DNA from: Bifidobacterium breve
GTDB lineage: Bacteria; Actinomycetota; Actinomycetes; Nanopelagicales; Nanopelagicaceae
NCBI GenBank assembly: GCA_945873335.1
Contig: CAMCCH010000001.1
Span: forward strand, 5,904-69,903
DNA length: 64,000 nt
Direction: 5' to 3'
Below are positions 42,261-45,149 of the stretch, in pieces (position 1 is the first letter of the stretch; the number at the start of each line of letters is the position of its first letter). The notes beneath the pieces are model-generated. The model was not told where the DNA came from and did no database searches. It saw only the letters and a list, made by a program, of their open reading frames with translations. A program made the translations under genes and the position numbers.

Positions 42261-42929
42261 ATGTCATTGAATTCGATCATGCATTGGTTGCGTCCGCATA
42301 AAACTATTCCGATAATGCCGTGGACTGGTACAGGTCGCTGGGATCTATCAACTAAGCGTTCTTTCATCTTGATTTTTGGTCTTATTATTTTTGGTCTGGG
42401 AGACTCACTTCTCATTCAGAGTCACATTGGAAATGCTCCATGGTCAGTGCTCGCGCAAGGTGTATCTCAAAATCTCAATATCACTCTTGGTTGGTCTACA
42501 TTTATTTTGAGTTCGCTTGTCTTGTTTTTTTGGATTCCGTTGGGCGAAAGACCTGGTTTTGGAACACTGATGAATATTGTTTTTATCGCAGCGGCAATCG
42601 AATTTGGAGTCACATACTTCCCAGTTGCACCGAACTATTTTGTGGGCATCATCTACTGCTTCATTGGAATTGCTCTCGTGGGATTAGGTTCGACCTTCTA
42701 CATAACCTGTGGCTTAGGACCTGGACCTCGTGATGGCTTGATGACAGCGATACACAATAAATCGGGCATTCGTGTGGGCCGCGTTCGTCTTGCCATTGAA
42801 GCAACGGTCTTGGTTCTGGGAGCTCTCCTAGGTGGGCGCGTTGGTCTAGGAACCGCTTTGTTTGCCCTTTTTATCGGCCAATCTATTGCGATTTCTCTCG
42901 GTGTTGTTTCCCGCTTTACCTCAAAGTAA
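42261..42929 (+). CDS. YczE/YitT-family membrane protein
   Basis: G.APW..L.QG, PG.GT..N, G.GPRDGLM, GG.VG.GT repeated architecture. Confidence 0.82.
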   Translation: MSLNSIMHWLRPHKTIPIMPWTGTGRWDLSTKRSFILIFGLIIFGLGDSLLIQSHIGNAPWSVLAQGVSQNLNITLGWSTFILSSLVLFFWIPLGERPGFGTLMNIVFIAAAIEFGVTYFPVAPNYFVGIIYCFIGIALVGLGSTFYITCGLGPGPRDGLMTAIHNKSGIRVGRVRLAIEATVLVLGALLGGRVGLGTALFALFIGQSIAISLGVVSRFTSK

Positions 42930-42945
42930 CTAATAGTCTTCACAT

Positions 42946-43025
42946 ATCTCCCCCCGGCTTGTGAGCCGTGAAGTCACACGGGGTCGCAACCACCCCCGAC
43001 ACCAAAATGAGAAAGGCTCACCATG
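42946..43025 (+). promoter_or_regulatory. Structured 5' leader of NCS2 permease (candidate cis-regulatory RNA)
   Basis: TAGTCT -10 at 42934; stems CGGC/GCCG, CCGTG/CACGG, GGGGT/ACCCC; GTGAGCC (42961-42967) complementary to GGCTCAC (43015-43021) at the RBS. Confidence 0.5.
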
Positions 43026-44459
43026 CTGGATAGCTATTTTAAAATATCGGAACGTGGTTCCACAGTAGGACGTGAAATTCGTGGCGGTTTCGTCACATTT
43101 TTCACTATGGCATATATCGTCGCACTCAATCCATTGATCATCGGCCTATCAAAAGATGCCGAAGGTAAATTCCTAGGTGGCGGAGATGCCCCTAACCTCG
43201 CAGCGATCGCTGCAATGACTGCACTCATTGCGGGAATTCTTACAATCCTTATGGGTGTTGTTGGAAATTATCCACTCGCACTTGCAACAGGACTTGGTCT
43301 CAATACATTCGTTGCAGTTGGTATCGCATCACAAATGTCATGGGCCGATGCAATGGGTCTTGTAGTTCTTGAAGGATTGATTATCACAGTGCTTGTTCTC
43401 ACTGGCTTTAGAACTGCAGTCTTTCGCGCAGTACCAGCCCAACTCAAGATCGCGATCTCAGTTGGTATCGGTCTCTTCATTGCTCTCATCGGATTAGTTG
43501 ATGCGGGCTTCGTTCGCCGTACAGGGTCAGGTCCAGTACCAGTAACACTGGGTGATAGCGGAACTTTGGTTGGCTGGCCAATCGTTGTATTTGCACTTGG
43601 TCTATTCTTGATGATTGGTCTAATGGTCAAGAAAGTAAAGGGTGCTCTTTTGATCGGTATAGCAGTGGCGACAGTTGCAGCTATTGCAATTGAGTCGGCT
43701 TTCAAAATTGGTCCACTCTTCAATGGTGCAACAGGTGCTGTCAATCCAAAGGGCTGGAACCTCAATGTCCCTGCTGTTCCTTCAAAGATTGTTGATACAC
43801 CAGACTTCGGTCTCTTCGGCCAATTCAACTTATTTGGTTCATTCGGTCAAGTTTCGGCAATCACTGCAATCCTTTTGGTCTTCACCCTCTTGCTCTCTGA
43901 CTTCTTCGACACCGTTGGAACAGTTACAGCAATCGGTCATGAAGCTAAACTTGCTGATAAAGATGGAAATGTTCCAAACAATGACCGCATTCTTCTTGTT
44001 GACTCGTTAGCAGCTGTTGCCGGTGGTGCAGGAAGCATCTCCTCTAACACAAGCTATATCGAATCAGCATCAGGTGTTGGTGAAGGAGCTCGAACAGGGT
44101 TGGCCTCAGTTGTTACAGGCTTGCTCTTCTTGCTTACAACATTCTTTGCACCGCTCGTAGCCGTTATTCCTTACGAGGCTGCAACTCCTGCTTTGATCAT
44201 TGTCGGTTTCTTGATGATGACACAAGTAAAGAATATTGACTGGGAAGATTATGGAATTGCAATTCCTGCATTCCTTACAATCATCTTGATGCCATTTACA
44301 TACAACATCTCTGTTGGAATTGGTGCAGGATTCGTTTCATTCGTAGTTATTCGCTTGATTCAAGGACGTCGCAAAGATATTCATCCTTTGCTATTCCTTG
44401 TAGCGGGTCTATTTATGATCTACTTCTTATCTTCACCAATCAATACTTGGATAGGCTAG
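43023..44459 (+). CDS. NCS2/AzgA-family purine (adenine/guanine/hypoxanthine) permease
   Basis: EIRGG.VTF.TMAYI, G.GLN.F, DFFDT.GT, TSYIES.SG...GARTG; GAAAGG SD. Confidence 0.9.
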   Translation: MLDSYFKISERGSTVGREIRGGFVTFFTMAYIVALNPLIIGLSKDAEGKFLGGGDAPNLAAIAAMTALIAGILTILMGVVGNYPLALATGLGLNTFVAVGIASQMSWADAMGLVVLEGLIITVLVLTGFRTAVFRAVPAQLKIAISVGIGLFIALIGLVDAGFVRRTGSGPVPVTLGDSGTLVGWPIVVFALGLFLMIGLMVKKVKGALLIGIAVATVAAIAIESAFKIGPLFNGATGAVNPKGWNLNVPAVPSKIVDTPDFGLFGQFNLFGSFGQVSAITAILLVFTLLLSDFFDTVGTVTAIGHEAKLADKDGNVPNNDRILLVDSLAAVAGGAGSISSNTSYIESASGVGEGARTGLASVVTGLLFLLTTFFAPLVAVIPYEAATPALIIVGFLMMTQVKNIDWEDYGIAIPAFLTIILMPFTYNISVGIGAGFVSFVVIRLIQGRRKDIHPLLFLVAGLFMIYFLSSPINTWIG

Positions 44460-44479
44460 TTGTAGAAAACTTGCTAGTG

Positions 44480-44514
44480 GAGGGCTCAGGGAAACCTGGG
44501 CCCTCTTTCCTTTT
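44480..44514 (+). terminator. Rho-independent terminator after the permease
   Basis: GAGGGCTCAGG-gaaa-CCTGGGCCCTC followed by TTTCCTTTT. Confidence 0.85.
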
Positions 44515-45149
44515 TACCAACTAACGGTTGGAAGTGAGTTCCTATTGAGGATTTCGTTTGATTTCGTAAATGGCTTAGAGCCAAAAAATCCTCGGTAGGC
44601 CGATAGTGGACTCGGGTGCGCACTTTCAATAACCCAATCACTTCGAAAATATTGCTTCACACTCTTGGCATCGTTGCCCCAAAGAATCGCCACAACATCG
44701 CGCTTGCCTAATTCGCTAGCAATTGCATTAGTTATTGGAGCCCACTGTTTCATTGAAATGTGGCCATCCGGTGAATACGTCAGTGCTCGATTGAGAAGTA
44801 GTACACCTTGATTACTCCATGCGGATAGATCCGATGATGGCGTATCTCTGCGACCTACATCCTCTTGATATTCCTTGAAGATATTTTGTAGCGATGCTGG
44901 AATCTTTTTCTCATTGGGCACCGCAAAAGCAAAACCTGTTGCATTACCCGGTGTTGGATAAGGATCTTGACCAAAAATTACGACTCGAACACTTTCAAGC
45001 GGAAGAGTGAGAGCACGAAAGGCACAATCGAATGGTGGATATGTAATCTTTCCTTCAAGAGATCTTTCAATGCTTTCTATTTCCGATGAAAACGGAGCTA
45101 GTACCGTTGCCCAACTCTCATCAAATTGCACGGGCAAAGAATCGTCCAT
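44514..45149 (-). CDS. ung: Uracil-DNA glycosylase, family 1
   Basis: GQDPYP, PASL.NI, QGVLLLN, ILWG, HPSPLSA; start uncertain (45131-45164). Confidence 0.92.
   Translation of the reverse strand: MDDSLPVQFDESWATVLAPFSSEIESIERSLEGKITYPPFDCAFRALTLPLESVRVVIFGQDPYPTPGNATGFAFAVPNEKKIPASLQNIFKEYQEDVGRRDTPSSDLSAWSNQGVLLLNRALTYSPDGHISMKQWAPITNAIASELGKRDVVAILWGNDAKSVKQYFRSDWVIESAHPSPLSAYRGFFGSKPFTKSNEILNRNSLPTVSW

Follow-up and report, generated by a model that had tools for sequence, protein, structure and literature searches.

A conserved leader RNA, very probably a riboswitch, occupies the 93-nt gap between a yczE-family membrane protein gene and the ATG (43023) of an AzgA-like nucleobase permease gene in the window, the 64,000-nt stretch of DNA analyzed here, whose genome belongs to the acI lineage of freshwater Actinobacteria. 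The reading we favor, with moderate confidence, is that of a translational OFF riboswitch built on the preQ1-I fold and likely repurposed to sense guanine, shutting down a purine-base importer. To the wider proposal, in which a preQ1-I pseudoknot repurposed as guanine sensor has been fused to a second pseudoknot, giving an acI purine-salvage regulator that moves between unrelated importers, we give even chances. A cis-regulatory RNA had been proposed from the sequence alone and is supported, its conservation being shown by P1 and PK1 helices that covary across 73 distinct sequences. The translational, purine-sensing riboswitch of this sequence-only reading stays likely as the overall interpretation, whereas the GUGAGCC/GGCUCAC switch by which it was thought to act does not stand. 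The acI bacteria are the most abundant freshwater bacteria, and the RNA, one of the few regulatory elements retained in their streamlined genomes, precedes purine-base transporters and not queuosine genes.

Leader architecture, transcription and conservation

All elements of the locus lie on the forward strand. The yczE-family gene (42261-42929; NF052291, 212 bits over the cut-off) is followed by a predicted -10 element, TAGTCT (42934-42939), an inferred transcription start at A42946 with a conserved 5' pyrimidine tract (42946-42954), a 5' module predicted to form an H-type pseudoknot (PK1, 42955-42978) and a preQ1-I-like aptamer core (42979-43011); from the inferred start through the core the RNA measures 66 nt. 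PK1 comprises two covarying helices, S1 (42955-42958/42965-42968) and S2 (42960-42964/42974-42978), of which S2 abuts helix P1 of the core. The Shine-Dalgarno sequence (SD) AGAAAGG (43010-43016) is followed by the presumed regulated gene (43023-44459), encoding a 478-aa NCS2 permease of COG2252 whose homology to AzgA/AZG purine permeases is supported by PF00860 and by its closest solved structures, the adenine/guanine permeases AZG1 (E 1.5e-48) and AZG2. An intrinsic-terminator-like hairpin lies 3' of the permease gene (44479-44516). In genus g32, yczE is not linked to the NCS2 gene, which sits elsewhere there.

The earlier assignment of TAGTCT as a -10 element proved plausible, as in 168 of 202 instances a TANNNT begins 41-48 nt 5' of P1, whereas the ten control bins placed farther 5' gave 1-20 of 202. 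A sigma-70 two-hexamer scan returned no match. Among transcript contigs from four RNA runs, one covers 42761-43916, and two others have 42963 and 42974 as their first positions; such contigs give neither start site nor strand, and the start at 42946 is a prediction from the TANNNT box at its fixed distance. The leader may also be transcribed by read-through from yczE.

The upstream regions of permease orthologues were searched with a regular expression in which a stem of 5 bp encloses a UC...AC loop and is followed by an A-rich tail. It matched 82 of the 85 family loci with upstream sequence (three loci with less than 60 nt upstream were left out of the count) and none of the 12 orthologue loci taken from other families, three of them from unpublished genomes (G042, G050 and G059). 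P1 was paired in all 73 distinct sequences, with compensatory changes at four of its five pairs, and two-sided changes in paired columns numbered 73, whereas shuffles gave 13.8 and slid controls 6-21; such sequence counts overstate the number of independent events because the sequences are related. S1 and S2 were paired in 87.6% and 89.7% of cells, respectively, and two-sided changes affected seven of eight PK1 pairs. The H-type knot, whose three loops measure 1, 0 and about 5 nt, could be drawn in 68/73 sequences, being missing in four and weak in one. S2 usually lies flush against P1, and PK1 keeps its sequence as well as its pairing. S1 and S2 could instead form alternative hairpins. A comparison of NCS2 upstream regions had been proposed in the sequence-only reading, and covarying helices are what it yielded.

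Of 151 family genomes, 127 carry the RNA according to the covariance model R1. The model also detected it in 141 of 151 genomes drawn from the order, a set that overlaps with the first, and in none of 145 genomes from other families of class Actinomycetes, unpublished genomes included. Five genera have neither the RNA nor the orthologous permease (0/19 genomes). The core model R2 gave a single marginal partial match in 151 genomes from the order to which G592 belongs, and viral contigs gave one match, at chance level. Individual loci depart from the pattern: L019 has unrelated sequence in place of the NCS2 leader, and L014 and L085 have lost parts of the loop, which would damage the pocket. 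The acI locus is also present in five lake metagenome-assembled records titled Bifidobacterium breve (L119, L127, L143, L185 and L207), a label that is probably wrong.

Aptamer core, competing helices and proposed mechanism

Numbered so that C42979 is position 1, the core can be aligned base by base to the preQ1-I aptamer of T. tengcongensis (Tte), and the Tte pocket residues named in the portions of PMC7641330 and PMC11625349 considered here match the acI core bases. P1 (CGGGG/CCCCG, 42979-42983/42994-42998) is closed by a G5-C16 floor pair that is GC in 73/73 sequences, the remaining four pairs covarying. In Tte numbering, the pocket bases U6 (42984) and A14-C15 (42992-42993) fall in invariant columns, and the tail holds A26-A29 (43004-43007) and A32-G33 (43010-43011), the last two being the first bases of the SD. 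Also present is a further preQ1-I feature, an A-rich L3 whose last base is the adenine that reads the ligand, A29. Since the search pattern fixed several positions in a larger, 182-sequence set, invariance was taken only from the 73-sequence set, where G5, A10, A11 and C13 are invariant although free in the selecting expression; U6 and C15 were fixed by that expression, yet 82 of 85 family loci that had not been selected matched it. Position by position, the unpaired bases that are invariant fall on those of the preQ1-I pocket. The SD is complementary to the 16S tail of a genome of the same genus (G007), and the best SD match begins at A32 in 154/202 instances, the layout with which Tte hides two of its SD bases. 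For P2, C9 was found in 150/182 and U30 in 141/182 sequences next to the invariant A11, with no covariation, and the helix was 71% paired in an alignment that misregisters short-tail forms. Two loci of genus g42 (L063 and L069) carry a hairpin of ~20 nt between aptamer and SD, and regulation there therefore cannot be direct SD burial.

Relatives scored up to 28.1 bits against RF00522 (E 0.00055, 261-nt query) with a cut-off of 39, a gathering score reached by none of 15 loci. In the window's genome, RF00522 gave six matches at E<=10, none of them the window's own copy, and Rfam models run on the window region returned four chance-level matches and only a tRNA at the cut-off. The expected absence of the leader from Rfam was confirmed in that the window's copy had no relevant match at cut-off, but the statement that it is not a PreQ1 element was wrong at the level of the fold, given the 28.1 bits of a relative's copy.

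The strings on which the earlier helices were built are all in place: CGGC/GCCG (42955-42968), CCGTG/CACGG (42966-42981), and GTGAGCC (42961-42967) complementary to GGCTCAC (43015-43021), which ends just before the ATG. Their fates differed. The first hairpin corresponds to S1, with its 87.6% of cells paired and two-sided changes at three of its four pairs. The second (CCGUG/CACGG) is not conserved, being fully pairable in 20/73 distinct sequences with no compensatory change among those, and GGGGU/ACCCC was drawn in the wrong register, as the covarying helix CGGGG/CCCCG leaves U6 and the AC motif unpaired. The 7-bp helix between GUGAGCC and GGCUCAC (42961-42967/43015-43021), which competes with PK1, was found in 3/73 sequences, all from the window's own clade. 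It dominates the pseudoknot-free ensemble of the window sequence (p 0.91-0.96) and may tune regulation in that clade. That this helix is predicted, in a pseudoknot-free model, to outcompete PK1 counts against the guanine reading. The leader on its own folds no better than chance (z -1.51, 17/200 shuffles as good).

By analogy with solved preQ1-I structures, the ligand would stack on G5-C16 and pair with C15, while U6 and A29 would read its minor-groove edge; the A-rich tail would then dock and a P2 helix would bury the first two SD bases. More speculatively, PK1 might stack on P1 and stabilize the fold, and it might remove single-stranded landing space for the ribosome, leaving the tail as the only entry. 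The genomic setting described below suggests guanine rather than preQ1 as the ligand, because guanine keeps the face read by the pocket bases, because it is among the kinds of substrate that both permease families carry, and because these cells have no route to make preQ1. Among adenine, guanine and hypoxanthine, only guanine is expected to show the face that C15, U6 and A29 read. All bases of the alpha site are unchanged, and the pocket therefore gives no reason of its own to postulate a new ligand.

The 5' pyrimidine tract bears on two other explanations. It is kept even in sequences without PK1, and a duplex between it and the SD region can form (about -6 kcal/mol on average), which, together with a ceiling unlike that of Tte (A11 for G11, C13 for A13) and the conservation of PK1 in sequence as well as pairing, could point to another ligand or logic: hypoxanthine, xanthine, a two-ligand device whose PK1 takes up a second molecule, or an ON switch in which the tract holds the SD until the ligand is bound. 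We consider this improbable, as tract and SD do not covary (24/30 shuffles were as good). Hypoxanthine and xanthine lack guanine's 2-amino group. According to passages of PMC11625349, C15, U6 and A29 read a guanine-like face that includes this group. An anti-SD role of the tract likewise has no covariation in its favor, and a role as anti-P1 is ruled out because the tract stays constant where P1 becomes ACAUG/CAUGU.

The second explanation does without a ligand and takes the leader as a protein-binding or constitutive structure, or as pyrC-like start-site selection combined with the anti-SD helix. The pyrimidine-rich start is indeed conserved and the anti-SD helix prevails in the window's nested ensemble, but this helix is confined to the three sequences mentioned above and a ligand-free RNA has to contend with the position-by-position match of its invariant unpaired bases to the preQ1-I pocket. 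NTP-dependent start-site selection, which the sequence-only reading had offered as a second mechanism, found no covariation support, the 5'-tract/SD duplex reaching -6.08 kcal/mol in cognate and -6.23 kcal/mol in non-cognate combinations. We regard a ligand-free role as very unlikely.

Regulated permeases and queuosine genes

A pattern scan of 16 of the 64 parts of the genome collection gave 120 matches, 107 of them with a full P1. These 107 comprised 96 before an NCS2 gene, five before an NCS1 permease (PF02133), one in an NCS1-type context at a contig end, two cut by contig ends and three that were chance-like. Among 80 metagenome NCS1 loci, the RNA also preceded the gene in 16, which are the closest of the set, so that only two kinds of gene were seen behind it: AzgA-like NCS2 permeases and unrelated NCS1 purine/cytosine permeases. 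NCS1 purine-cytosine permeases overlap in substrates with AzgA-like ones. The latter (COG2252) commonly carry adenine, guanine and hypoxanthine, as described in part of PMC6308229, and on this family-level annotation the window's NCS2 permease would carry one of these bases. The NCS1 gene adjoins a yeast-type cytosine deaminase gene, which could point to cytosine uptake. One genome (G599) has near-identical copies of the RNA on both permeases, and in three (G195, G208 and G274; 99, 97 and 93% complete), which have no NCS2 orthologue, the RNA precedes NCS1. At one locus (L232, 2426-4409), the RNA, NCS1 and cytosine deaminase genes lie between crtB and crtI, and in six g32 genomes (L383-L388) the same slot holds the RNA with NCS2, so that the transporter following the RNA has apparently been exchanged.

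Other leaders were seen in this setting. Four NCS1 genes (L254, L255, L256 and L259) are preceded by a different conserved leader with a pyrimidine-loop hairpin, an A run and AAGG, which recalls the layout of type III preQ1-I riboswitches and had no Rfam match in the two scanned; five more (L250, L251, L252, L258 and L261) share another motif, without an Rfam match in the three scanned. TPP-like matches below the Rfam cut-off were found at L232:1316-1419 (39 bits), before a pnuC-like gene, and at L241:568-671 (35 bits).

The intact pocket bases are also what would be expected of a functional preQ1-I variant sensing imported queuine or preQ1, with the AzgA-like and NCS1 permeases acting as unrecognized queuosine-precursor importers of bacteria that have tgt only. 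The gene tgt was present in 140/151 family genomes; its loss in the window's clade was ruled out, as it is missing from the window's genome because of an assembly gap in which the whole neighborhood is unassembled. QueF over cut-off was found in 0/151 family genomes and QueA in 0/14 distinct genomes, so that any preQ1 or queuine would be imported. Two weak partial QueC matches in five genomes were not accepted as queC, and hpt was found in 5/5 genomes. QPTR/YhhQ scored over cut-off in 42/151 genomes, adjoining tgt; most genera, including the window's, are without it (none in g1, g26, g29, g30, g32 and g41), and since QueT was likewise absent (0/5 genomes), genera with tgt should need some queuosine-precursor importer. 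The pocket loop of TGT reads GGAL or GGAI in acI, not the E. coli-type GGLAVG given in part of PMC11570991, and new families of queuosine-precursor transporters keep emerging, as an excerpt of PMC11130926 states. It is because of these points (an unchanged pocket, tgt without a known importer, new transporter families and a TGT pocket that is not of the E. coli type) that we keep queuine or preQ1 sensing as the main alternative, if a rather unlikely one. In five acI genera (L355-L364), yhhQ/QPTR is convergent with tgt and seven of ten TGTs have Leu for the pocket Cys.

The placement of the RNA argues against queuine or preQ1 sensing. In the 42 genomes with QPTR beside tgt, the RNA stays on the purine permease, lying directly before NCS2 in 40, at a contig end in one and being missing in one, and it precedes QPTR in none of them; ten QPTR loci scanned directly with R1, R2 and RF00522 were without a match in all cases. 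Nor was the RNA seen before tgt or any que gene in the pattern scan or at the tgt/QPTR loci. Conversely, the two best RF00522 matches among 151 phylum genomes (L349 and L350), canonical-looking, just under the cut-off and from other Actinomycetota, lie before a yhhQ-like gene and queD. In genera g28 and g31, tgt is kept (9/9 and 6/6) without the RNA, the orthologous permease or QPTR, and two unrelated, generic nucleobase permeases would both need to carry queuine. Were queuine or preQ1 sensing nevertheless true, two new families of queuosine-precursor transporters would be named by the RNA, and we know of no earlier queuine-responsive riboswitch, so that this would be the first. If instead the guanine reading holds, the RNA would be a ligand-switched natural variant on one of the smallest and best-studied aptamer scaffolds and would add a second fold for guanine sensing.

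Comparison with known regulatory RNAs

Start-site control at pyrC and codBA involves a pyrimidine-rich start region, which the acI leader shares, but a 5' hairpin over the SD, though it could form in the leader, shows no covariation and is probably not conserved, and there is no U run. A literature search found no description of this RNA, although the type II alignment of McCown 2014 could include some acI sequences; the part of the acI genome paper considered here (PMC5301498) names scans with the TPP, FMN and cobalamin Rfam models only.

Likeness is closest to the preQ1-I riboswitches. With type II the acI RNA has in common a 5-bp P1 closed by G5-C16, the bases U6, C7, G8, C9 and A10, an A-rich L3, A32-G33 as first SD bases, an equal core length and AC directly before the P1 3' strand, the last being the type II rule in the portion of PMC11625349 considered here. 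The Tte aptamer has a G11-C30 ceiling and A13, whereas the acI RNA has A11 and C13 in 73/73 sequences and U (141/182) or C at position 30. It also adds the 5' pseudoknot module, scores below the Rfam cut-off, and is associated with nucleobase permeases where type II members serve que, queT or yhhQ genes. We set the acI RNA apart from preQ1-I members because it fails both the Rfam cut-off and the gene association and because its ceiling and 5' knot differ.

The acI loop core, A11 and C13 included, resembles the Rfam consensus line and the loop of type I (C. antarcticum), and an A-U pair could make up the acI ceiling as it does in the C8-A12-U32 of type I, described in part of PMC8752633. Type I carries UU after the P1 5' strand, UC before the 3' strand and a tail C, whereas the acI RNA has a single U and AC; since it is without the UU and UC second-site signatures, one ligand is predicted. 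Type III differs more, having a short pyrimidine-rich loop whose UU pairs with AAGG in place of the 10-nt A/C-rich loop of the acI RNA. All three described types bind preQ1, and the Bsu type II pocket prefers preQ1 over preQ0 over guanine, the last being bound weakly, according to sections of PMC11625349.

The acI RNA had no Rfam match to the Guanine-I purine riboswitch (RF00167). Guanine-I riboswitches adopt a three-way-junction fold and read guanine through a C. They most often precede COG2252 permeases (22%, as reported in part of PMC5737381). If the acI RNA is a guanine sensor, it would represent a convergent solution to that of Guanine-I, reached on another scaffold.
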